Assembly: GCA_031415295.1 (NCBI GenBank)
Contig: JANORL010001305.1
Coordinates: forward strand, 1-12,731
DNA: 12,731 nt
Origin: Polyangiaceae bacterium
GTDB taxonomy: Bacteria; Myxococcota_A; Polyangia; Polyangiales; Polyangiaceae
Reading direction: 5' to 3'
A model generated the notes under the pieces. It did not search any database, was not told the origin of the DNA, and worked only from the letters and a program-made list of their open reading frames with translations. The translations under genes and the position numbers were made by a program. Shown here one piece after another: positions 1,723 through 12,731 of the stretch (its first letter is position 1; each line of letters begins with the position of its first letter).

Positions 1723-2481
1723 ATGCGCCATATCTCTCTCCTCGCACTTTACGTAGGCCTCAACGATCTCCTTGAACGACGCGTTACAGCGCTCAGCAGT
1801 TTCGCCTCCGGTGCCGCAAGCGTCAAATTACTCACGAACAAGCGGACAACCCTCGCCAAATTGCCCGCCGTCGCCAATGGTCGACCCCTCGTCGATGACC
1901 TCGACGCCACAGACGCACGCTACGACGCCCTCGGCCACGCCTTGTACCATTTCACCGAAGCCTACACGCGCCATCCTGATACCCCACCGCCCGTACTCAT
2001 TGCCGCAAAAAAGATCCGCGCCGCATTTATTCCGACCCTCGAAAACCTCGGCGCAAGTTATGCCGCCGAAGCAAAAGCGGCCATGGATCGAAAATCTGAC
2101 CTCACCCATTTGCAATCAGAACTTGCTATGTTTCCCGTCGTCGGTGGCGGTACCCTGCAAGATTGGGCCGCAAAGTTTCTCAATGCAGGCACGGACCTCG
2201 ATGCATTGCTCAGCCAACGAGCGGATATCGAAAAACAAAGTCGCAAAGATGCTGGCCGCCTACGCGCCGAATTGATCGGTCTACTGAATCGTTTACGCAA
2301 AAACCTCGCTGCCGAAGTAGACGACGACGCAGCATTGCCCCAGGACCTCGATGCACGTGTCTTTGGGTATTTCGATTTGCTGGAAAAGCACGCCGCAGAA
2401 GCCGCCGCAAAAGGTCAACCCGAGGCGCCGCTGCCACCGCCCGAAGTTGCCCCCGTGGTGGCTGGCGGAGCCACGCCGTAG
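1723..2481 (+). CDS. Hypothetical protein (252 aa), Ala/Leu/Asp-rich, probably helical, with a Pro/Ala-rich C-terminal tail
   Basis: Part of track ORF 1549..2481. The first 58 codons (MFGCSPGLRRDSHATGPH...) look non-protein-like, so the start is placed at the next ATG (1723, MRHISLLALYVGLNDLLERR). GC-rich third codon positions and protein-like composition throughout. No clear Shine-Dalgarno and no family recognised. Confidence 0.55.
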   Translation: MRHISLLALYVGLNDLLERRVTALSSFASGAASVKLLTNKRTTLAKLPAVANGRPLVDDLDATDARYDALGHALYHFTEAYTRHPDTPPPVLIAAKKIRAAFIPTLENLGASYAAEAKAAMDRKSDLTHLQSELAMFPVVGGGTLQDWAAKFLNAGTDLDALLSQRADIEKQSRKDAGRLRAELIGLLNRLRKNLAAEVDDDAALPQDLDARVFGYFDLLEKHAAEAAAKGQPEAPLPPPEVAPVVAGGATP

Positions 2482-2592
2482 CATGCGTCGCCTACGAATG
2501 GCCCCGCCGATACGCGTCGTCCTACCCTTTGCGCGTACCCAGCGCTCCCGTCGACAATCTACAATAAGCATCGGCACCATACTTGTTGCCCC

Positions 2593-2676
2593 TCGGACCA
2601 GCTCCGAACAGCCGGTCGATGGGTGTTTCGGGTGGTTCGGACCAGCTACGAACAGCCGGTCGATGGGTGTTTCGGG
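2593..2676 (+). repeat. Two tandem 40-nt units (2593-2632, 2637-2676; 39/40 identical; period 44), each containing an imperfect hairpin
   Basis: Unit is TCGGACCAGCT[C/A]CGAACAGCCGGTCGATGGGTGTTTCGGG. Within each unit CCGAACA pairs with TGTTTCGG (one bulged T). Located between the stop at 2481 and the start at 2775. Confidence 0.9.
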
Positions 2677-2774
2677 GTGCATATCCGTCTCGACGCAAAC
2701 GCTGGCAGCTCGGGATTGTCCTTGGATTCAGTGGTTGTGCCAGCTTTCTTTTTTGCGATTGCGACGAATAGGTC

Positions 2775-3101
2775 ATGACCATACCGAAAAAAGGCAGCCG
2801 TCGAGTGCGCGTTGGCGAGTGTGAATACGCTTGGCGCATTCGGAAAAAGCCCACCTACACGCAAGCCGCGTTTCAAACGCCTATGAGCTTGGCGGTTCAG
2901 CGATGCGCGCCGGATGCCGGCGGTGTTCTTGTCGTGAACCTCGTCGTCAGCCGACCGGACAATTGGATTTCACCGCATCAAACGTCGGTAACTCCAGCGG
3001 TGGTCCGAGACATCGTTGCCCGCGCCATTGCCGCGGGTTGGGATGCTGCAAGTACGGAACCATTTGTTTTTGAATATGGCCTCATTCGCGATAGAGCCTG
3101 A
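2775..3101 (+). CDS. Small hypothetical protein (108 aa)
   Basis: Complete track ORF: MTIPKKGSRRVRVGECEYAWRIRKKPTYTQ...SVTPAVVRDIVARAIAAGWDAASTEPFVFEY. Protein-like composition. It resembles small conserved hypothetical proteins of GC-rich bacteria from memory, but I cannot name a family. Weak RBS. Confidence 0.6.
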   Translation: MTIPKKGSRRVRVGECEYAWRIRKKPTYTQAAFQTPMSLAVQRCAPDAGGVLVVNLVVSRPDNWISPHQTSVTPAVVRDIVARAIAAGWDAASTEPFVFEYGLIRDRA

Positions 3102-3250
3102 GGGTATGGCGAACCGATGACCCAATCTCGCAGAATTGCCTTTCCATGCGGCAGAATGTCCACGAGAAAGTCCGTCTTCGACCGGCCTCGCCACTCGCGC
3201 GAGGAGCAACGTCCTGCGTCGCTGGGGCGGTATTACTTCAGCGGCACCCT

Positions 3251-3336
3251 TCTTCGGATCCACCCTGCGGCGCTTTGAGGATCCACGGCGCCGTTCCTGG
3301 CTGCGCTACTCGCGGCGCTTTACGGATCCACCTCGC
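3251..3336 (+). repeat. Left arm of a modular inverted-repeat pair: CTTCGGATCCACCC module plus two GCGGCGCTTTnnGGATCCAC modules (3267-3286, 3312-3331, period 45)
   Basis: Read directly. 3312-3331 (GCGGCGCTTTACGGATCCAC) is the perfect reverse complement of 4526-4545. Confidence 0.9.
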
Positions 3337-3349
3337 CATCAGCGCTGGA

Positions 3350-3385
3350 GGTGGCATGCGCCCCGTTTGAGGGTGGCACGCGCCC
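3350..3385 (+). repeat. Short direct repeat GGTGGCA[T/C]GCGCCC (3350-3363 and 3372-3385, period 22)
   Basis: Read directly, 13/14 identical, immediately inside the left arm. Confidence 0.8.
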
Positions 3386-3641
3386 TGCATAGTTTTTAAG
3401 AGCAAATGGTGCGCGCGTAGCGCGCGGGGCAGGATCAGACCTCCTGATGTCGAGCAGCGGTTTGGTTTGCCCTTGATACCGCGCATCAAGCTGAAACACG
3501 AGGAAATCCGTCGGCGTACGTGTCAGTGACCCGAGGTGCGTTCGAGGAATTTGCGATGAGCCGCTCCGGGTTCGTTCCGCCGGCACGCCTCGGGTGAAAG
3601 ACGCCGTCCGATACCTCGAAATGCGGTTCGTCCGGTACGCC

Positions 3642-3674
3642 GGGGTGGGTTAAAACCCTGACCATTCGTCTCAT
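3642..3674 (+). repeat. Inverted-repeat member 1 (33 nt, GGGGTGGGTTAAAACCCTGACCATTCGTCTCAT)
   Basis: Its reverse complement matches 3937-3969 at 29/33 positions. Confidence 0.85.
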
Positions 3675-3936
3675 TTTTCTTCGGGATCTGCCCTTCAAAA
3701 TCGATGCGGCCCTCCTTTTCAATCCGGACGCAGTTGTCTCACAAGTCGAGGGCAAACGTTCACAGCAGGATCCGGCGCTTGACGCAAGTCTCACCCGGAG
3801 CCGCATCAGGGCCATATTGTCCCGAGGCTGCCGAGGTCAACGATCACGGGGATCAAAGCTGCCTACGTGGGGTTACTCGCTGCTGGACGAGCCAAACCAC
3901 TATCTCTGAAGTCCTTCAAAACAAGGTGAATTCGAG

Positions 3937-3979
3937 ATGAGATCAATGGTCAGGGTTAAAACCCACCCCTCTACATAAC
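3937..3979 (+). repeat. Inverted-repeat member 2, a hybrid: 3937-3969 pairs with member 1 and 3954-3979 pairs with member 3
   Basis: Sequence is ATGAGATCAATGGTCAGGGTTAAAACCCACCCCTCTACATAAC. The two complementary partners overlap on 3954-3969. Confidence 0.85.
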
Positions 3980-4119
3980 AAAATCCTCGCGCTGTCGCGC
4001 TCGGATTGGCGCTGTCGAATTTTCCGGTCAATTCGTGAATTGCCAGCGTAGTCACGATTGAGGCGAATTCTCGTCATAACATCGACGAGGCAGTGTTCTT
4101 GCAGTAGCAGGAATACTTC

Positions 4120-4145
4120 GTTATGTAGAGGGGTTGATTTTAATC
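4120..4145 (+). repeat. Inverted-repeat member 3 (26 nt, GTTATGTAGAGGGGTTGATTTTAATC)
   Basis: Its reverse complement matches 3954-3979 at 23/26 positions. The 15-nt core ACCCCTCTACATAAC (3965-3979 versus 4120-4134) matches perfectly. Confidence 0.85.
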
Positions 4146-4268
4146 CACCTCGTGGGCACGGAGGGACAAACGGTTCGGAGTCATGAGACCACTTCTTCAA
4201 TCCTGGGGCAGAGTTGCGAATTGGGTTCGCGTCAAATTCCGTGACATCCGGAGGTCTGAGGAGAAGCG

Positions 4269-4497
4269 GAAGTTGCCATGTGGCAACTTCGCAACCGAGG
4301 TGAACTCGGTTCCGTGCGGAATAACACGCCAACTTCAAAAGCACCCAAACGGCCGCACGGTTGCGTCTTCGACACCGAGGCGACATTGGGTTCGTCTTGA
4401 CTGTGAGGCAGCGTCGCCTCGGTGCCTCTGCCGCGAAGCATAGCGTCACCAATTGCGCAGCAATGTGCGAACAACGGATCGCATTGCCGCAGCAATT
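4269..4497 (+). other. Train of five strong stem-loops
   Basis: H1 4269-4290 (GAAGTTGCCA/TGGCAACTTC). H2 4293-4311 (AACCGAG, loop GTGAA, CTCGGTT). H3 4312-4319/4353-4360 (CCGTGCGG/CCGCACGG). H4 4373-4384/4413-4424 (perfect 12 bp, CACCGAGGCGAC/GTCGCCTCGGTG). H5 4451-4465/4482-4497 (15 bp with one mismatch and one bulge). Confidence 0.75.
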
Positions 4498-4520
4498 ACG
4501 CGTGCGAGCTGAGCGGCATG

Positions 4521-4650
4521 CGCTAGTGGATCCGTAAAGCGCCGCCAACGACCTTCGAAGCGCGCCACGGGTGGGATCCGAAATTTATTCGCAATTGGAT
4601 CCGATTTAGAGCGCCGCCAAATCGGTATTAACAAAATGGATCGAAGATGG
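4521..4650 (-). repeat. Right arm of the modular inverted-repeat pair (same modules as 3251-3336, opposite orientation, with one extra module)
   Basis: GTGGATCCGTAAAGCGCCGC at 4526-4545 is the perfect reverse complement of 3312-3331. GGGATCCGAAA starts at 4573. GGATCCGATTTAGAGCGCCGCC is at 4597-4618. TGGATCGAAG at 4637-4646 resembles the reverse complement of 3251-3261. Confidence 0.9.
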
Positions 4651-5040
4651 GAAGGTTTCGGCACGTCAGGTCCAGTCTCCACCCTACTCTACACTAACTA
4701 AATTCTGAGGGAACACTGTCTCACGTGATGTTGGACGAAGCCGTTTCGCGGCGGGGTTCCTGCACTTGCGATCCACGGCGTGAGGTGGTAGTTGTGTCTC
4801 GCTGGCTGCGGGAACGGGCGAGTGCTCAACACCGTTCTTTGGCGGGCTAGCAGCCGATGGAGTTTGGACGACCGCCACGTGGCAACAGTTCCCACGAGCG
4901 CTGACAGCGTTTCCAACCGGCGTCGGGAATACCGGCATGGAATTGTTGATCCCATCGCTGGCGGCTTGCTACGCGTGTATTTACCGGCCGCTAAATCAAA
5001 ACGAAATCCCCATATTCAACAGCAAACGTTGTGCCGCCTT

Positions 5041-5108
5041 AAATTACGGGTGAACGCCTCGCGCCCCGCCGCTCAAATCACGGGCAAACGCCTCGCACCC
5101 CGCCGCTT
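5041..5108 (+). repeat. Tandem duplication of a 34-nt unit (core 28-mers 5046-5073 and 5080-5107, 25/28 identical)
   Basis: ACGGGTGAACGCCTCGCGCCCCGCCGCT versus ACGGGCAAACGCCTCGCACCCCGCCGCT, each preceded by AAAT. Confidence 0.85.
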
Positions 5109-5251
5109 CGGGCTCGTCCAACCACGCGTTTCGTCGGCGGCTTGGCCGGACTGCGTGCGTCGCAACATGCGCCAACGAAACGCTCATAATTGGCACAGAG
5201 GGAACGCACTCGCGCTCTGATGGCATTTGAAGTCCACATTTCATCAGGGAG

Positions 5252-5307
5252 CCGCACGTGCGGGCGTGGGCCTTTATGGTGAACTTTACTAAAGTCCACC
5301 ATAAAGG
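5252..5307. promoter_or_regulatory. Candidate operator-like palindromes ~245-300 nt upstream of the vWA operon
   Basis: Perfect 12-bp palindrome CCGCACGTGCGG at 5252-5263. AT-rich 37-bp palindrome CCTTTATGGTGAACTTTA-C-TAAAGTCCACCATAAAGG at 5271-5307 with one mismatch. A regulatory function is inferred from position only. Confidence 0.3.
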
Positions 5308-5535
5308 CGTCGTAACCCGACTGCGCCAGCATCCACGGTGTACGGCAACATACGTGCCTTCCGAGTCGCCTACCGTATCGTTGCGGCGCGAAGTGATTCC
5401 GGTTGGTATTTATCAAACTTGCTGATAGTTCAACGTTTTGCGGATCCATGACGACGCGAGGCGAACGGAAGCACGACCTTTGCGAAAACGACTGTTGCCT
5501 TCAGCGCACGACATCGCGCCGCTCACCGGTCACTT

Positions 5536-5541
5536 AGGAGG
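5536..5541 (+). promoter_or_regulatory. Shine-Dalgarno AGGAGG for the first operon gene
   Basis: AGGAGG lies 8 nt upstream of ATG 5550. Confidence 0.85.
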
Positions 5542-5549
5542 ATAGGCCA

Positions 5550-6356
5550 ATGACACTGAAGCGATTCGACCCGTCGAAGTTCACCACCAACAAGCCCAAG
5601 CCTATGCCAGTGATTCTGCTTCTGGATGTGAGCGGGAGCATGGGCGAGGTCATGGGTGACTCGTACGAGCGGACGGGACAAACCGTCTTCGAGGATGGTC
5701 AGCAATGGGAGATTGTGAAGGGCGGCATCTCGCGAATCGATGTGCTCAATCAAGCGGTACAGGAGATGATCGCCTCTTTCGCGAAGGAAGAGCAACTCGA
5801 ACACGAGTTTCTGATCTCGGTGATCACGTTTGGCGGCTCCGTTCGTATGCATCTCCCCCCAATGAAGGCGTCTCGCATAGAATGGAAACCGCTTACGGCT
5901 GCAGGTGAGACACCCCTTGGCGAGGCGATAACGATGGTGAAAGGGATGATTGAGGACAAGGAATCGACGCCCTCGCGAGCTTATCGTCCGGTTCTCGTTC
6001 TCGTGTCGGACGGCAAGCCGACGGATGCCTGGGAGGCGCCGCTCGAGGGCCTGGTGGAAAGCGGCCGTTCCATGAAGTGCGACCGCATTGCCCTGGCGAT
6101 CGGAGCGGGCACGGACGAGGACATGCTTCGCAAGTTCATCGCAGACACGCCAAACCCGCTCTTTCATGCCTCCGATGCCAACCAAATACTCGACATATTC
6201 CGCCGCGTGACAATGTCCGTAACGACTCGAACCAGGTCCAAAGATCCGAACCAAGTTTCGTCACTTGCGAGCCTAGAATCCGCTCCGGCGCCGCAGAGGC
6301 CCGCCGAAGCAGCGCCATCAGGTCCTTCGACGATTCCCGATGACGGCTACTGGTGA
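5550..6356 (+). CDS. von Willebrand factor A (vWA) domain protein, TerY-like, with an intact MIDAS (268 aa)
   Basis: Strong SD. Motifs are PVILLLDVSGSMGE (DxSxS), AAGETPLGEA (MIDAS Thr), VLVLVSDGKPTD (MIDAS Asp) and IALAIGAGTDEDML. Pro/Ala/Ser-rich C-terminal tail ending in DDGYW. Confidence 0.9.
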   Translation: MTLKRFDPSKFTTNKPKPMPVILLLDVSGSMGEVMGDSYERTGQTVFEDGQQWEIVKGGISRIDVLNQAVQEMIASFAKEEQLEHEFLISVITFGGSVRMHLPPMKASRIEWKPLTAAGETPLGEAITMVKGMIEDKESTPSRAYRPVLVLVSDGKPTDAWEAPLEGLVESGRSMKCDRIALAIGAGTDEDMLRKFIADTPNPLFHASDANQILDIFRRVTMSVTTRTRSKDPNQVSSLASLESAPAPQRPAEAAPSGPSTIPDDGYW

Positions 6357-6961
6357 CGCGTTCGGGGCATTTGATGGTACACGAGCGAAAAACGATCATC
6401 GTCGCCGATACGTCGGGCAGCATGCGTGAGCATGGCAAAGCGACACTGGCTCGCAACCTTCTCGCGCATGTTCGCCAGGTCGCAATCAGCAAAACCGAGC
6501 CGTCGTCGTCGGACGCACCAATCCTCGTGCAATGGAGCAGCGACGCGACCATTCTGAGGGTACCGTCGCACGAGGATTTGCCTTCGCTTTCGATAGGTGG
6601 GCGTGCTGCAATGCAGCCATTGCTCGCGTTGCTGGATGAATTCACGGTGGACGGCATCCCGCTCTGCCTTCTTATGGTGTCGGACGGGCACCTGCCAACC
6701 GCTGACGTCGCGGCCTTTCGAGCCTGGGTGCGCAAGCATTCGATTGTCGTCGTGCGGACGATTGCAGTGGGACCGGACGCCGCGATTGCGACGCTCGCCC
6801 GAATGACGGGCGCAACCGAGGCAGCGGGCCGTCAAGGCGAAAGAACTTGTTATCGGCCGGAAGACATCTGCGCCGCGCTTGATTCGTGGCCCCGCGTATT
6901 CCCAGAGCTGCCGGTGTTCACGGCCGAAGTGACGGGCGTTCTAGGGAGTTTCTCACAATGA
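6353..6961 (+). CDS. Second vWA domain protein with a partly degenerate MIDAS (202 aa from GTG 6353; alternative ATG at 6374)
   Basis: GTG 6353 overlaps the upstream TGA (GTGA at 6353-6356). Motifs are TIIVADTSGSMRE (DxSxS) and LCLLMVSDGHLP (Asp strand). The usual GGT position reads GGRAAMQPL, so the MIDAS Thr is absent. Confidence 0.8.
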   Translation: MTRSGHLMVHERKTIIVADTSGSMREHGKATLARNLLAHVRQVAISKTEPSSSDAPILVQWSSDATILRVPSHEDLPSLSIGGRAAMQPLLALLDEFTVDGIPLCLLMVSDGHLPTADVAAFRAWVRKHSIVVVRTIAVGPDAAIATLARMTGATEAAGRQGERTCYRPEDICAALDSWPRVFPELPVFTAEVTGVLGSFSQ

Positions 6962-8442
6962 GCTTTCCTATGGCCAGCGAGCCGTCACGATTCGTGGACG
7001 AGTATTTCAACGTGCATGAACGCGGCACGGAGCTTGGCCGTGGTGGTCAAGGCGTGGTGTTCCGAACCAAGGACCCCGATGTGGCGGTGAAGCTCGCGCT
7101 AGACGGAAACGGTCGACCCGTAGAGTTTGCTGCATACCGCGAGAAGTTGCGTCGAGTGCGTGCGCTTCCGGTGCCTCTGGGGCTTCATCTCGCAGCGCCC
7201 ATGGCCGTTCTGCAAGAAATCGCCGGCTACGCAATGCGCCTGTTGAACGGTATGGTCCCGTTTGCGCACTTTTCACCAGATCCGAGCCGTCATGCGGAAT
7301 TGCCGACCGAACTGCCGCAGTGGTTAGCGGCGATGCCCGAGGAAATTGCCTTTTGTCTCCGGTGGTATGGCGAATCCGGAGGACTCCATCGCCGATTGAT
7401 GGCGCTCTACAAATGCGCGTCGATACTCGCCCGGCTTCATGGCGCGGGCCTCGTATATGGCGATGTATCGCCGACCAATGCATTCATTACGAAAGACCCG
7501 CGATCGAACGACGTTTGGCTCATCGATGCTGACAATCTCCGGTACGAGACGTCCGCCGGTGGACCTGGAATCTACACACCTCGGTTTGGGGCTCCGGAAC
7601 TGGTTCAGGGGCTTGGCGGAGCTTGCCAACGTACCGACTGCCATGCCTTTGCGGTGATGGCGTTCTCAACACTGACGCTCCTACACCCGTTTATCGGGGA
7701 CCTTGTTGAGTCGGGCGGCGAAGGCGACTGGGCCGCAGACGACTCCAATGCTGCGGATCTGGACGAGCGGGCCTACGCCGGCCACTTACCGTGGATTCTC
7801 GACGAGGTCGACGATCGCAATCGCAAGGACAATGGGCTCGTTGGTCTCGTGCTTACCGACGAACTGCTAACGCTGTTCCAGGCAACCTTCGGGCCTGGGC
7901 GGATGCAGCCTTGGATGCGGCCGTCCATGTTTTGGTGGCCCTCCGCGCTCGCCCGGGCCGCCGATGGAGCCGTGACTTGCGGTGGCTGCGGCATGAGCCA
8001 CTTTTACGACTTCGAAGATCCGTCGTCGCATTGCCCATTCTGTGACGCGACGCCCAAGGCAACGTTTGTCGCAACAGCCTACGATTGGCTGGGGCAATCC
8101 ATTGAGCGCCAGCTCCCCACGTGGCGCCTCGCGCGTGCCTGGCCAGTTCCGGCCCCCGCATTCACCATTCCCCATCGAATGCTATATCCATTTTCCGTTG
8201 TGGATGGAGAGCGCGACATTCTCGAGTTGCGCCAGGAGAACGACGAACTGCGACTGACGTTCTGTGACGGTGGCCGCCAGCATCATTTGGCGCTTGCTGC
8301 GGACGAGGGCGAAGGTGCGTTCGTCGAATTCGAAGGCACGGCGGCCATTCCCTTGTCACTCGCAGCGACGGGGTTTTGGATTCGTGTAGGTGGCCCGTGC
8401 CCGCGGGTTGTGCGCTGCGTCCTTCAGAAGGGCACAGCATGA
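6958..8442 (+). CDS. Atypical Hanks-type Ser/Thr protein kinase with a zinc ribbon and an uncharacterised C-terminal domain (494 aa)
   Basis: ATG 6958 overlaps the upstream stop (ATGA at 6958-6961). Kinase motifs are GRGGQGVVF (Gly loop), VAVKL (Lys at nt 7090-7092), LVYGDVSPTN (catalytic loop), WLIDADNL (DFG equivalent), TPRFGAPE (APE) and DCHAFAVMAF..LHPF. The zinc ribbon is CGGC-x14-CPFC. Confidence 0.85.
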   Translation: MSFPMASEPSRFVDEYFNVHERGTELGRGGQGVVFRTKDPDVAVKLALDGNGRPVEFAAYREKLRRVRALPVPLGLHLAAPMAVLQEIAGYAMRLLNGMVPFAHFSPDPSRHAELPTELPQWLAAMPEEIAFCLRWYGESGGLHRRLMALYKCASILARLHGAGLVYGDVSPTNAFITKDPRSNDVWLIDADNLRYETSAGGPGIYTPRFGAPELVQGLGGACQRTDCHAFAVMAFSTLTLLHPFIGDLVESGGEGDWAADDSNAADLDERAYAGHLPWILDEVDDRNRKDNGLVGLVLTDELLTLFQATFGPGRMQPWMRPSMFWWPSALARAADGAVTCGGCGMSHFYDFEDPSSHCPFCDATPKATFVATAYDWLGQSIERQLPTWRLARAWPVPAPAFTIPHRMLYPFSVVDGERDILELRQENDELRLTFCDGGRQHHLALAADEGEGAFVEFEGTAAIPLSLAATGFWIRVGGPCPRVVRCVLQKGTA

Positions 8443-11400
8443 ACCCGTGCGATGTTCGATCTCCCACGGCCCACTCGGTTTGGTTGCTCCCTCTGCTCGA
8501 CGACAATCTATTGGTCAAGGGCGTGGCGGATCTGAGGTTTGGAGACCAGTCCGGCGAGTACGTCGTCGTTCAAGGCGATCGCATCACAGCGGTGCGCTTG
8601 AAATCCGCGCGCCGTTCCCACATCCTCGACACGCTCTTGGGCAGTGGGCGTGCCCGGATCGCGACGATTGACCAAGTCGTTCGCGATGGCAGGGAGCTTC
8701 AGATGACGATTCGCTGTTTTAATGGCGATATCATCGCGTTTGGCGACATCGACGTGGGCATTGACGAGCATGCTTATCAGCACACGCGCCGATTGCTCGG
8801 GATGTGGAAAGCCGACGTCGAGACCATTGCAGAGATCCTCAACAAGCTTTGTGTTTTGCGGCTGAGCCCAGCACAACGGGATGCTTACTTCTTGCTCACT
8901 GCAGGGGCAGCGGCGGAAAAAGGTTTCGAGGTTTCAACGGAGGGCGCAGCCTCGACGAGCCCGGAGGTCACCGTTCCACCTTTCGAACGAGCCTTCTGCA
9001 TTCATGGAGACGGCATTCGGATTGCGGTCGCTTCGAAGAAAGTTGGACCCGACGAAACCAAATACCTGGCGACGCGCCTGACGACATCGATCGGGGGCGA
9101 TGCAGACGGTGCCATTCGTCTTGCGCGCGGGCGTTTGACGTTCTCGAACTTTACCCGGACCGGGCCGGTGCAAGCGATTGCTGCCGGCGCAATGGCGCGT
9201 CTCACGGAGAACCAAAACGGCTATCTGAAGAAATGGGACGAATATGGCGCCGAAGAAGGCAAGCTTCTCCTCGATCGCGCCCGGAAAGTGGGCGTCTTGC
9301 GATGGGCCCGCGCTTCGCAGCTCCCGCGGGGGGCATCTGGCATCGTGTTTCACTTCGCAGCGCCGCTGCCTGACGCTCTCTCCGCAGGAGACGAGCTTGA
9401 AATCGTCGCCAATCCGCCCGCCTACGTTCAACGCCCCGACATGTCTTGGGCGGAGTATCTACGATTGATCGAGGAGCAGGTCGACAAGAAGCGGGAGCGT
9501 CGCCAACAGGAGCCACGGCGGGGCGGAGGCGATGGAAAGGAGATGGTTGTCGCCGAGGTCCTCGAAATCTCGGACAAGAGCTTGGTTTTGGATCTTCCTA
9601 TCGCGCCGGACCGTGAAGATCTCTGCCTCGTCCTCTCTTTAAGCGGGGATCGCACACAAATTGAACGACGCATGGAGGCTCGCAAGATGGTGCAGGAGGG
9701 GCGCAGCGCCAATCCGATGCTCGGCGTTATCATCGAAGAGAATGGAAAGCCTCAGACGCTGCAGCATTTTCGTCGGATCAAGCCCCTCAGCGCCTTCGTC
9801 AAGGACAAGGTCTTCAAGGGCCGGCCGCCGACGCGAGCACAGGAGGACGCCATTCGGATTGCCCTGGAGACGCCGGACATCGCGATTATCCAAGGCCCTC
9901 CGGGCACCGGGAAGACCACTGTTATCGCCGCCATCGTCGAGCGCCTGAACGAGCTTTCCGACAAGGAGCGATCGATTCAAGGTGAGGTGCTCGTCTCGGC
10001 GTTTCAGCACGATGCCATCGAGAATATGATGGCGCGGCTCACGGTAAATTCCATCCCAGTACCCAAGTTCGGCCATCGCTCTGGCATGTCCGAGCTTGGG
10101 GATCGCAATGCCGAACAGATGCGCCGTTGGGGCGGCAAATTGGCAGCGAGCGTGCGCCAAAAGAATCCCCACCTGCAGGCGTCCGAAAAGATACTGAACG
10201 CTGAGCTGCGTTGTCGTGAATACATCCTCGCCCCGTCTCTCGACAACGCGCTCGGGACCATCGATGCGTTCATCGAAGTGCCTGAGCGCCACTTGCCTTC
10301 GAGCCTGATGCAGGCGGCCAAGGCGCTCAAGGCGCGCCTCGTACACGAACGTGACGGGCAGCAGGTCCAGGAAGATGCAGACATATTACGCGCGCTGTGG
10401 AGACTGCGAACGAGTTCCGAGGGCTTTCAGGACGACGGGCCGGAAATGGCCCAGAGCCTGGTTGAGCAGTGCGGCAAGGAGCTACAGCCAGCAGAGCGCG
10501 AACTGCTAATGCGTGCAGCCAGGTGGTTCGACCTCGACCCGCCTCCGTTCCTCGATGAGCTTCGTGCCCTGAAGAGCTGCCTACTCGAACGCTACCGTCC
10601 CCAGGTCACTTTTCGGCTCGACAAACCAAGAAAAGACGTTCTCGATTTCGTCGAGGAGGCCTCGCGGCAGCTTCAAGCGGGCCTTGGTGCTAGCAATCGG
10701 GACAGAATTCTCGCGGAATTCTTACATGAGCTCGAAAGCAACCCTGCGGCAGTCCAGCGTGCGGCTGAGGAGTACGGCTTCGTGTTCGCAGCAACGTGCC
10801 AACAGTCACAGGGGTGGCGCATCACCCGACGGAAGCTCAGCACGTCCGTCACCTCGGGTCATGTAGACTACGACACCGTCATCATTGACGAGGCGGCACG
10901 GGTCAGTCCAAGAGACCTTCTCATTCCGATGGTGCAGGCTCGTCGGCGGATCATCCTCGTGGGCGATCACCGGCAATTGCCGCACATGATCAATGAGGAG
11001 ATTGCGCGGACGTTGGAGGCTCGGGATGTCGCAGCAGGCGAGGAGCCTGCCGCTATTCGCGAGGATTCGTATGTCCGCAGGAGCATGTTCCACTACTTGC
11101 GGTCGCGTCTCGAGCAGCTTGAAGCCCACGATCGGATTCAACGTTGGGTGACACTGGATCAACAATTTCGGATGCACCCGCTGCTTGGGAAATTCGTCAG
11201 CGATCACTTTTACCTGCAACACCGTGAGGAATTCACCTCGCCGATTGCAGGGGACAAGTTCTCGCATGGCCTTCCTGGTATCCCCGACGTGCCCGCCGTT
11301 TGGATCGACGTACCTGCACGATCGGGCGAGCAAGAGCGTGGGGGCACAAGCTGGACACGTGTCCCGGAGGCTCACCAGATCGCGAAATGGCTCAAGCGTT

Positions 11401-11906
11401 GGATCGATTCGCCAGCCGGACGCCGGCTGACCTTCGGCATCATTTCTTTTTACAAGGCTCAGACGGGCGAAGTTTTCCAAGCGCTGTCGAGCCGCGGATA
11501 CACCACGCGTGACGAGGCTGGCAACTGGCGAATCTCCAAGGACTACTTGGTAAGACCTCCCGAAGAAGAGCTGCCTCCAGAGGAGCGCCTGCGCATCGGC
11601 ACCGTTGACGCATTCCAAGGCATGGAGTTCGACATGGTGTTTCTGTCCATGGTCCGTTCGAGGCGAAACCTCCCTGATCCGACGGATGACCCCGCGGAGT
11701 TGACCCGGCTAGAGCGTACGCTCTACGGGCACTTGACGTCGCCTAATCGCCTTTGTGTAAGCATGAGCCGTCAAAAGCGGCTGCTCGTCGTGGTGGGCGA
11801 CAAGGCGATGGTCGAGCACGAAGTCGCTTCGCGAGCCGTGCCTGGTCTCGTTGGCTTCCTCCAACTCTGTAAGGCGCATGGGGCTGTTTTCGGGATGGAA
11901 GACTAG
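8439..11906 (+). CDS. Superfamily 1 helicase of the Upf1/DNA2 (COG1112-like) type with a ~470-aa uncharacterised N-terminal region (1,155 aa)
   Basis: ATG 8439 overlaps the kinase stop (ATGA at 8439-8442). Motifs are IIQGPPGTGKTT (Walker A, nt 9894-9917), VSAFQHDAIENM, AATCQQS, VIIDEAARV (Walker B, DE at nt 10887-10892), ILVGDHRQLPH, LDQQFRMHP, IISFYKAQ, TVDAFQGMEFDMVFLSMVRS and RLCVSMSRQKRLLVVVGD. Confidence 0.9.
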   Translation: MNPCDVRSPTAHSVWLLPLLDDNLLVKGVADLRFGDQSGEYVVVQGDRITAVRLKSARRSHILDTLLGSGRARIATIDQVVRDGRELQMTIRCFNGDIIAFGDIDVGIDEHAYQHTRRLLGMWKADVETIAEILNKLCVLRLSPAQRDAYFLLTAGAAAEKGFEVSTEGAASTSPEVTVPPFERAFCIHGDGIRIAVASKKVGPDETKYLATRLTTSIGGDADGAIRLARGRLTFSNFTRTGPVQAIAAGAMARLTENQNGYLKKWDEYGAEEGKLLLDRARKVGVLRWARASQLPRGASGIVFHFAAPLPDALSAGDELEIVANPPAYVQRPDMSWAEYLRLIEEQVDKKRERRQQEPRRGGGDGKEMVVAEVLEISDKSLVLDLPIAPDREDLCLVLSLSGDRTQIERRMEARKMVQEGRSANPMLGVIIEENGKPQTLQHFRRIKPLSAFVKDKVFKGRPPTRAQEDAIRIALETPDIAIIQGPPGTGKTTVIAAIVERLNELSDKERSIQGEVLVSAFQHDAIENMMARLTVNSIPVPKFGHRSGMSELGDRNAEQMRRWGGKLAASVRQKNPHLQASEKILNAELRCREYILAPSLDNALGTIDAFIEVPERHLPSSLMQAAKALKARLVHERDGQQVQEDADILRALWRLRTSSEGFQDDGPEMAQSLVEQCGKELQPAERELLMRAARWFDLDPPPFLDELRALKSCLLERYRPQVTFRLDKPRKDVLDFVEEASRQLQAGLGASNRDRILAEFLHELESNPAAVQRAAEEYGFVFAATCQQSQGWRITRRKLSTSVTSGHVDYDTVIIDEAARVSPRDLLIPMVQARRRIILVGDHRQLPHMINEEIARTLEARDVAAGEEPAAIREDSYVRRSMFHYLRSRLEQLEAHDRIQRWVTLDQQFRMHPLLGKFVSDHFYLQHREEFTSPIAGDKFSHGLPGIPDVPAVWIDVPARSGEQERGGTSWTRVPEAHQIAKWLKRWIDSPAGRRLTFGIISFYKAQTGEVFQALSSRGYTTRDEAGNWRISKDYLVRPPEEELPPEERLRIGTVDAFQGMEFDMVFLSMVRSRRNLPDPTDDPAELTRLERTLYGHLTSPNRLCVSMSRQKRLLVVVGDKAMVEHEVASRAVPGLVGFLQLCKAHGAVFGMED

Positions 11907-11909
11907 GCC

Positions 11910-12731
11910 ATGAGTGACAAGCTAGTGGATCGGCGTCCACGCATTCTAGATTTCACACGGAGGATTGACGATGTCCGGGCGGTTAGGGATCTTGGGTGGC
12001 CATGCGATGCGTTTCGCGTGACCGTTCCCGTTCGTGGCGTCGGCGGCTTAAACGTATTCGAGCATCTGTTATTGAGGCTTCTTGACGACGCTCGGCTCGA
12101 TGAGGATGGCATCCATCAAACGACCGGTTTGGATCTCGATTTAGTTACCCTCATTTGTAGTCGTTTGCGCGATCTTGTACTCCTCGCAGAGCGTAATGAG
12201 CTGACAGATGGCGGACGCGCATACCTGGACGAAAAGAATCGAGAAGAGCCGACCTACGAGGTTCGCTTCCTTTTTCGGGAGCGTGTGTCGGGTGCACTAC
12301 TTCCTATCGTGCTCGGGCGCGCACTGACCTTCGAGGAGCTTCTCTGCTGGGATGACACGAGCGCCGAAATCAGGACCCACGATCATCGGACTGTGCGGCT
12401 GAAAATGGTGCGCAGCCAATCGATAGTGGCTTCTCGACCGCCGACGCCTGAGGAGGTGTTTCGGGCTGCGCGTCGGCACGCCGAGCTCGACCGCCAGTAC
12501 TCCATGCTCCGCCTGGATGACGTTAGGGTACCGCAGATCGTCGTCACCCAAGGGGTCAATGTCGATCCCATTCCGGAGAAGGTTTTTCTGCGCTGCCGCG
12601 TGGTCATCCCGGCGACGGAAGACGATTATCGAATTTGCGACCCTTTTGGTTTCGGCTTCTCAGATACACTCTTTCGCGCCTATGAGACGCTGAGGGCACG
12701 CGGGGGCGACGACCAAGCGCTCCGTCACCGG
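11910..12731 (+). CDS. Uncharacterised protein with a probable N-terminal winged-helix-like segment. First 274 codons only; continues beyond the right window edge.
   Basis: Not in the track because it is open to the edge. ATG 11910 is 3 nt after the helicase stop, and I translated 274 sense codons with no stop. Translation begins MSDKLVDRRPRILDFTRRIDDVRAVRDLGWPCDAFRVTVPV. The segment GLNVFEHLLLRLLDDARLDEDGIHQTTGLDLDLVTLICSRLRDLVLLAERNELTDGGRAYL has a MarR/wHTH-like pattern. GC-rich third positions match the upstream genes. Confidence 0.7.
   Translation, partial: MSDKLVDRRPRILDFTRRIDDVRAVRDLGWPCDAFRVTVPVRGVGGLNVFEHLLLRLLDDARLDEDGIHQTTGLDLDLVTLICSRLRDLVLLAERNELTDGGRAYLDEKNREEPTYEVRFLFRERVSGALLPIVLGRALTFEELLCWDDTSAEIRTHDHRTVRLKMVRSQSIVASRPPTPEEVFRAARRHAELDRQYSMLRLDDVRVPQIVVTQGVNVDPIPEKVFLRCRVVIPATEDDYRICDPFGFGFSDTLFRAYETLRARGGDDQALRHR

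Follow-up and report, generated by a model that had tools for sequence, protein, structure and literature searches.

CoCoNuT (coiled-coil nuclease tandem) operons of Types II and III-A are composed of a VWA gene, which is sometimes duplicated, and of genes for a PP2C phosphatase, the kinase STK-ZnR, CnuH, CnuE, CnuB, and CnuC or CnuCD (Bell, Makarova, Wolf, and Koonin, eLife 2024; PMC11090510; hereafter Bell et al., 2024). The region from 5550 to 12731 of the Polyangiaceae contig JANORL010001305.1 is very probably the 5' portion of a CoCoNuT operon of Type III-A, consisting of a TerY-P-derived module that lacks PP2C, of cnuH, and of the start of cnuE. The whole contig of 12,731 nt was analyzed and is called the window in the following; its end cuts the fifth gene of the operon. 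A first-pass annotation had interpreted the same region as a cassette of five genes and as a candidate for an undescribed defense or conflict system. Its view of a defense or conflict system was upheld, but the gene content essentially matches that of the published CoCoNuTs, with the missing PP2C as the exception.

The CoCoNuT proteins have been described computationally (Bell et al., 2024). The UPF1-like helicase CnuH comprises an SmpB-like OB domain, a RelE/colicin D-like RTL domain, and a stalk/OB, its Walker A is followed by a helical insertion, and its N-terminal OB domain has been likened to both HIRAN and SmpB. CnuE is built of an elongated wHTH region followed by HEPN RNase domains, CnuB is an McrB-like GTPase, and CnuC and CnuCD contain DUF2357. 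Two HEPN motifs in CnuE, RxxxxH and an RxH near the C-terminus, are the mark of Type III-A, while in Type II the CnuE protein has a single HEPN domain and CnuC contains a zinc ribbon and a PD-(D/E)xK domain that is inactivated. When the VWA gene is duplicated, the 5' copy has a perfect metal ion-dependent adhesion site (MIDAS), and the internal copy is shorter and devoid of the MIDAS Thr. Upstream of CoCoNuTs, a BrnT-like toxin and an activator of the RtcR-like CARF/sigma-54 kind have been described. According to Bell et al. (2024), Anantharaman et al. (2012) had already dealt with these operons in passing.

The family is thus a published and computationally defined one, and one of its branches now has experimental support. 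A Type II CoCoNuT of seven genes, termed "Obs," is reported to protect Pseudomonas aeruginosa against PP7 and LeviOr01, both RNA phages, and the DNA phage MPK7, and transposon insertions in two of its genes abolish the protection (bioRxiv 10.64898/2026.04.06.716636). The "Obs" system, with TerY-P, CnuH, CnuE, CnuB, and CnuC, belongs, according to Bell et al. (2024), to the same operon family as the locus described here, and it is the only family member with a reported phage-protection phenotype. Two further systems share components with the locus, namely TerY-P, a triad of VWA, PP2C, and kinase (Anantharaman, Iyer, and Aravind, 2012) whose stand-alone form has been reported to be defensive (Gao et al., 2020), and Mokosh, for which the same has been reported and whose type I is defined by an STK-helicase gene and a PLD gene (Millman et al., 2022).

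Gene content and family assignment of the operon

The operon comprises five open reading frames (ORFs) on the forward strand. They encode a TerY-like VWA protein (vWA1, 5550-6356, 268 aa), a divergent VWA paralogue (vWA2, 6353-6961, 202 aa), the STK-ZnR kinase (6958-8442, 494 aa), the UPF1-like superfamily 1 (SF1) helicase CnuH (8439-11906, 1155 aa), and the N-terminal 274 aa of CnuE, which represent its elongated winged-helix region (11910-12731). Three junctions are overlaps (GTGA at 6353-6356, ATGA at 6958-6961, and ATGA at 8439-8442), and the fourth is a 3-nt gap (11907-11909). A Shine-Dalgarno sequence, AGGAGG, was read directly from the sequence of the same strand at 5536-5541, 8 nt before the start codon of vWA1. 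The first-pass annotation had described this arrangement accurately, and the five genes are indeed one tightly coupled expression unit. By codon position, the GC content is strongly periodic in 5400-12731, with a spread of 0.2-0.33, and flat in the stretch from about 2400 to 5400, so that the ORF calls are not chance. Two starts are ambiguous, i.e., GTG 6353 or ATG 6374 for vWA2, and ATG 6958 or ATG 6970 for the kinase, which would have 490 aa with the latter; in the relatives the kinase start corresponds to 6970. Sample SRR20217188 yielded two Logan contigs that match positions 5134-7815 and 7815-12712 exactly, including the junction between vWA2 and the kinase gene. A look-up of the exact kinase protein gave no called gene on record.

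In scans of genomes with the helicase and of metagenomes with the kinase, in contig look-ups, and in a search of plasmids, 24 related loci were recovered, and the gene order was informative in 20. The sources are Corallococcus, Cellulomonas, Eggerthellaceae/Slackia, a Planctomycetaceae metagenome-assembled genome, metagenomes, and a conjugative Klebsiella plasmid, and the phyla Myxococcota, Actinomycetota, and Planctomycetota are represented. The common order is VWA, (VWA), PP2C, kinase, helicase, and then proteins of 650-740 aa, 830-1020 aa, and 1100-1420 aa, the last of which contains DUF2357. Gene order and overlaps of the window are conserved across the 20 loci, all of which run on into CnuE, CnuB, and CnuCD where the sequence allows. 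The closest relatives are 60-76% identical. The closest kinase (76% identity) and the closest helicase (69%) are encoded on one contig, and the next genes on this contig encode proteins of 711, 998, and 1371 aa, the last with DUF2357.

The downstream genes of the relatives carry the hallmarks of the family. The full-length CnuE proteins have 713-716 aa and carry two HEPN motifs, one being R[DN]xxxH and the other, at the C-terminus, R[GE]HGN (e.g., RDxxxH and RGHGN). RxxxxH is present in the loci L002, L004, L006, L007, L013, and L019-L023, and RxHGN in the same loci minus L023. All relatives whose sequence reaches far enough downstream contain CnuB and a CnuCD with DUF2357 (L002, L004, L006, L007, L013, L017, L019-L023, L025, and the P0001 contig). 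The CnuB motifs are GVSGTGKS, LLDEMN, and GTMNQDETT, representing Walker A, Walker B, and NxD, and DUF2357 was identified by Pfam; PDB sequence searches with CnuB and CnuCD of L002 gave no matches. Judging from all close relatives, the operon of the window would continue past the contig end with the two-HEPN part of CnuE, CnuB, and CnuCD. The assignment is to Type III-A rather than to Type II, because the CnuE proteins of the relatives carry two HEPN motifs; their long CnuCD is a further difference from Type II. The cassette of five genes is therefore an artefact of the contig end.

With Type III-A CoCoNuTs the window shares the gene order VWA, (VWA), STK-ZnR, CnuH, and CnuE, a duplicated VWA gene with an internal copy that has lost the MIDAS Thr, the domain layout of CnuH outside its alpha/beta domain, and the wHTH start of CnuE. 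It differs from them by the lack of PP2C, of the sigma-54 promoter, and of the DUF4258 gene, and by an RtcR-like activator that is only a relic. It is extremely improbable that the region represents an undescribed vWA-vWA-kinase-helicase-wHTH system of five genes that is distinct from the named ones. Such a reading could invoke that no NCBIfam model scored above its cut-off for any of the cassette proteins, that the PADLOC v2 matches are only partial or cross-family, and that a cassette without PP2C does not equal the canonical TerY-P triad. However, the composition including the duplicated VWA is contained in Bell et al. (2024), the cassette is truncated and not five genes long, and PP2C directly precedes the kinase gene in 18 of the 21 loci in which this position is visible, missing only from the window and the two JGI metagenome loci L020 and L021, while the window carries a deletion scar.

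Some of the related loci have additional features. On Klebsiella and Enterobacter conjugative plasmids, which account for 21 plasmid records in total, extended Type III-A-like operons are present, one of them being L025 (NZ_CP082786.1, an IncFIB conjugative plasmid of Klebsiella quasipneumoniae). Their order is VWA, hypothetical, AAA ATPase, DUF1887 CARF, vWA2, PP2C, kinase, CnuH, CnuE, CnuB, and DUF2357. In these operons the kinase is annotated as "LPS kinase" and CnuB as "chromosome partitioning protein ParA," and both annotations are probably wrong. In L017 (ENA ERZ25039484 contig_79699, 6000-21230) the same operon is found with frameshifts that split nearly every gene, so that it is either a pseudogenized copy or a result of indel errors in a long-read assembly.

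Domain structure of the proteins and relation to TerY-P and Mokosh

The five domain assignments of the first-pass annotation were right, as seen from Pfam, PADLOC, and alignments. vWA1 is matched by the Pfam families VWA_2 (4.7e-9) and VWA (6.7e-9), and it is 62-69% identical to the vWA1 proteins of close relatives. Its MIDAS is complete, with D26, S28, S30, T121, and D154 being invariant across 13 homologues, and the PADLOC match to TerY is weak (1.1e-4). The divergence of vWA2 is such that Pfam gives a value of 0.087 only, but the profile of the vWA2 family aligned by hhalign with that of the vWA1 family over 157 columns (probability 96.3%, E 1.9e-9). The alignment shows that vWA2 retains D19-x-S21-G-S23 and S110-D-G and has lost the MIDAS Thr column, in accord with the degenerate MIDAS that had been noted. 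In the kinase, the G-loop, K45, YGDVSPTN (D169), IDADN (D190/D192), and the zinc ribbon C341xxC...C359xxC are kept, all in invariant columns of a family with 849 homologues at E<=1e-10. The Pfam Pkinase match (8.6e-4) is under the gathering score, and PADLOC PD-T4-6 matches with 9e-10. The earlier description as a Hanks-type kinase with a zinc ribbon is hence correct.

Two C-terminal regions of these proteins were also observed to be conserved. vWA1 ends in a low-complexity Pro/Ala-rich linker that is followed by a conserved DDGYW (residues 264-268; 6339-6353). DGYW is found in 10 of 13 vWA1 homologues, the Gly is invariant, and the tail may be a docking peptide. The kinase contains a region of about 130 residues past the zinc ribbon (residues ~361-494; 8038-8439), which is conserved, mostly beta-rich, and without a family assignment; L004 and L007, both from actinobacterial relatives, have it in truncated form.

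CnuH was assigned by Pfam (AAA_11 2e-27, AAA_12 8e-30), by PDB sequence matches to Upf1/NAM7 (1.6e-14), SMUBP-2, SEN1, and DNA2, and by Foldseek matches of the full-length model to IGHMBP2 (1.9e-23), SETX, UPF1, and DNA2. All SF1 motifs are present, with Walker A (486-493), DEAA (817-820), GDHRQLP, TVDAFQG, and SMSRQK being conserved, and the Upf1/DNA2-like helicase with intact motifs of the first-pass annotation is well founded. AlphaFold2 models (pLDDT 83.3 for the full-length protein and 86.5 for the N-terminus) predict an N-terminal OB domain (residues 1-108), an alpha/beta domain (139-237), a stalk with a beta-barrel (242-419), RecA1 (466-545), an all-helical insertion (546-802), and RecA2 (811-1151). 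The insertion lies between Walker A and Walker B (817-820) and is modeled as helices only over about 255 aa; the AAA_11 match stretches over 386 residues compared to the 257 positions of the Pfam model. With the CnuH N-terminus, Foldseek gave partial matches to IGHMBP2, UPF1, and Dna2, including the UPF1 1B domain, and weak matches to the HIRAN domain of HLTF (E 6e-3, prob 1.0) and to SmpB (4v8q_B2, prob 0.85, TMt 0.40). The visible part of the fifth gene is matched by Pfam wHTH-PRTase_assc (7.4e-5). It aligns over about 270 aa with the CnuE proteins of the relatives, and the identity to residues 5-273 of the L002 CnuE is 56%.

The resemblance to TerY-P and to Mokosh-type helicases that had been pointed out is real. 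Like the TerY-P triad, the window has a TerY-like VWA with a MIDAS and a Ser/Thr kinase in one operon. Unlike the triad, it has no PP2C, its kinase contains a zinc ribbon, where the tested stand-alone TerY-P kinases carry an OB-fold (Bell et al., 2024), and the module is part of a much larger operon. With Mokosh type I it has in common a homologous UPF1-like COG1112 helicase, a helicase-associated kinase, and the wHTH N-terminus of the downstream gene. This could mean that the locus is a variant of Mokosh type I in which MkoA is split into kinase and helicase, the fifth gene is an MkoB with its PLD domain beyond the window, and two VWA genes have been added. The PADLOC MkoA model (PDLC03920) matches CnuH with 4e-82 (HMM positions 529-1085 of 1112) and the kinase weakly with 0.012, and the MkoB model matches the fifth protein with 2e-10. 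However, the MkoB match covers no more than the wHTH N-terminus that the two have in common (HMM positions 7-170 of 610), the full-length orthologues of the fifth protein contain HEPN-type motifs and have no Pfam match to PLD, and the McrB-like and DUF2357 genes that are missing from Mokosh lie downstream in all close relatives with visible sequence. The separate kinase gene and the VWA genes are also at variance with Mokosh. The cross-matches are explained by the general pairing of cnuH-like helicases with genes for wHTH effectors (Bell et al., 2024), and a Mokosh variant is therefore very unlikely.

Several observations weigh against the assignment to Type III-A CoCoNuT or against what it implies. 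The window stops at CnuE residue 274, and the part of the locus that would encode the HEPN domains, CnuB, and CnuCD is out of view. The SmpB and HIRAN matches of the CnuH N-terminus have E-values of only 6e-3 to 0.4. An alpha/beta domain is modeled at about 139-237, but neither RelE nor colicin D was among the top 50 Foldseek matches of the N-terminus. PP2C, a defining accessory gene, is lacking, only a relic is left of the upstream regulator, and the locus is possibly decaying. Furthermore, the RNA-targeting mechanism is a computational prediction, and Type III-A appears to be untried in the literature covered.

The PP2C deletion and the upstream region

In agreement with the first-pass annotation, which saw no PP2C-like ORF, a search of all six frames of the window found no PP2C, the best E being 0.09 with tblastn and 0.86 with the family HMM. 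Comparison of the junction with those of L016, L022, and L023 revealed a deletion scar of 12 nt on the forward strand at 6958-6969. In the scar, the PP2C start ATGAGC, which overlaps the stop codon of vWA2, is fused to the last bases of PP2C, TTTCCT, and the kinase ATG at 6970 follows. Because of this scar, the window must descend from an operon that contained PP2C. An assembly artefact at the vWA2/kinase junction was considered and rejected, since L018, a Logan contig from an independent assembly that corresponds to window 5134-7815, is identical and has the same scar junction, although it stems from the same sample. In L020 and L021 the former PP2C site is occupied by unrelated mini-ORFs of 14 codons (L020, 2520-2564) and 11 codons (L021, 4566-4601), which overlap both the vWA2 stop and the kinase start. 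Translational coupling has been preserved after the deletion of PP2C. As judged from the sequences, the vWA2/kinase junctions show a deletion and not a primary absence of PP2C.

In a neighbor-joining tree of kinase and helicase (1560 columns) the window groups with a PP2C-containing sister with 99% bootstrap support, and L020 and L021 are placed in another subclade, alongside loci that contain PP2C. Therefore, PP2C was lost at least two times independently. L020 and L021 have a complete downstream set, and the catalytic motifs of their CnuE and CnuB are intact. The modestly new aspects of this analysis are the recurrent and precise excision of PP2C, as judged against Bell et al. (2024) apart from its full Type III-A table, and the reduction of the RtcR-like activator to a relic.

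The regulatory region of the window is also reduced. In many close relatives an RtcR-like activator gene and a BrnT-like DUF4258 gene are located upstream. An intact RtcR-like gene just 5' of the operon, together with a sigma-54 -24/-12 element, is present in L002, L017, L022, L023, and L024. The element, TGGCACG-N4-T[TCG]GC[TC], fits 10 of the 12 consensus positions and is located in the interval from the activator gene to the first gene of the operon (at 6233 in L002, 2397 in L022, 975 in L023, 2574 in L024, and 7725 in L017). Its presence before the operon in all activator-bearing relatives supports the regulatory model of Bell et al. (2024). It was not found in the window, L019, L020, and L021, all of which are devoid of an intact activator. 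In the window, a frameshifted relic of the RtcR-like gene of about 63 codons, split over two frames, remains on the forward strand at 5215-5418, and the BrnT-like DUF4258 gene and the rest of the RtcR-like gene are gone. Residues 474-536 of the L002 RtcR-like protein, which has 656 in all, matched the relic in tblastn with 44% identity (E 4e-6), and a hidden Markov model of the three-sequence family recognized it as well (iE 2.9e-7). Because the RtcR-like activator and its promoter have been lost, expression of the operon is probably sigma-54-independent in the window lineage; a sigma-70 consensus scan of 5000-5700 did not reveal a promoter-like site. The activator is missing in all three PP2C-less loci and also in L019, which contains PP2C and is otherwise complete. 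The association of the two losses is only a hint, as it is based on nine loci that are phylogenetically non-independent.

These losses raise the question whether the locus still works. It could be a degenerating CoCoNuT remnant that has lost the activator, the BrnT-like gene, and the phosphatase and no longer provides defense, a reading that concerns the function and not the family. The frameshifted activator relic, the deleted PP2C, the lack of a match to either the sigma-54 element or the sigma-70 consensus upstream, and the region 2400-5400, which has no coding periodicity and is rich in short repeats, are in line with decay. In contrast, all five ORFs are intact with strong codon periodicity, including the 1155 codons for the helicase, the invariant catalytic and metal-binding residues of vWA1, the kinase, and CnuH have all been kept, and translational coupling has survived the deletion of PP2C. 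Furthermore, the layout without PP2C and RtcR recurs in L020 and L021, whose downstream genes are complete with intact motifs, and L019 has no RtcR-like gene and yet is otherwise complete. Decay to a non-functional remnant is therefore considered unlikely. A simpler and perhaps constitutive mode of the system in the window is favored over its decay, because the long ORFs are intact, the catalytic residues are kept, and the same layout recurs in complete operons.

The remaining upstream sequence has several features of its own. About 3 kb upstream of the operon (2400-5200) lack codon periodicity and contain dense short repeats. These include tandem repeats of 44 nt (1.9 copies, 2593-2676) and 34 nt (2.2 copies, 5033-5107), a repeat GCGGCGCTTTnnGGATCCAC at 3267 and 3312 that is found inverted at 4526, inverted repeats of the GGGGTGGGTTAAAACCC type (3642-3674/3937-3969 and 3953-3993/4106-4146), and a near-perfect palindrome (5270-5308). 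An ORF of 252 aa on the forward strand (1723-2481) is codon-periodic and belongs to a sizeable conserved family, of which 399 representatives match at E<=1e-3 and 78 of them still do at E<=1e-30, over the full length; it received no annotation from Pfam, PADLOC, or PHROGs. The upstream 5.5 kb gave no matches with Rfam (gathering threshold; E<=0.1), with Pfam, PADLOC, or PHROGs, in a search for tRNAs, or in blastn against plasmids.

Proposed mode of action and significance of the PP2C-less loci

Following Bell et al. (2024), CnuH would bind aberrant or viral RNA, possibly on stalled ribosomes, through its SmpB/HIRAN-like OB and the stalk OB, and would translocate along the RNA using ATP. Its proposed partner is CnuE, to which it would be coupled via the wHTH domain and coiled-coils and which would cut RNA with its HEPN domains, and CnuB and CnuCD may act as an McrBC-like GTPase pair in target recognition or licensing. 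The VWA/kinase module would constitute a phosphorylation switch that acts on all of these components. The idea of the first-pass annotation that a vWA/kinase switch controls a helicase effector comes near to this proposal with respect to the switch, but not with respect to the effector, which is predicted to be the HEPN RNase CnuE with the McrBC-like pair and not the helicase alone. In the window lineage two negative or conditional controls are gone, one being the cognate PP2C and the other the RtcR-like activator with its promoter, and marks set by the kinase would not be reversed by a dedicated partner.

A candidate undescribed defense system has thus been refiled under a published family, and as such it is not a discovery to pursue. 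The standard labels of the encoded proteins, i.e., "LPS kinase," "ParA," and "AAA domain-containing protein," have the consequence that loci of this kind keep looking novel.

The clean deletion of PP2C on at least two occasions, with both VWA genes and the kinase gene left intact, speaks for the phosphatase being a negative regulator that can be dispensed with. It is tentatively suggested, at slightly less than even likelihood, that the Type III-A CoCoNuTs without PP2C and RtcR, i.e., those of the window, L020, and L021, represent a functional and recurrently evolved stripped-down regulatory state, in which the sigma-54/CARF induction has been replaced by another promoter. If this is true, the VWA-kinase pair would hold the essential activating function of TerY-P modules, PP2C would be only a dispensable brake, and the stripped-down loci would offer a natural genetic handle on the control of the CnuH/CnuE machinery by TerY-P.

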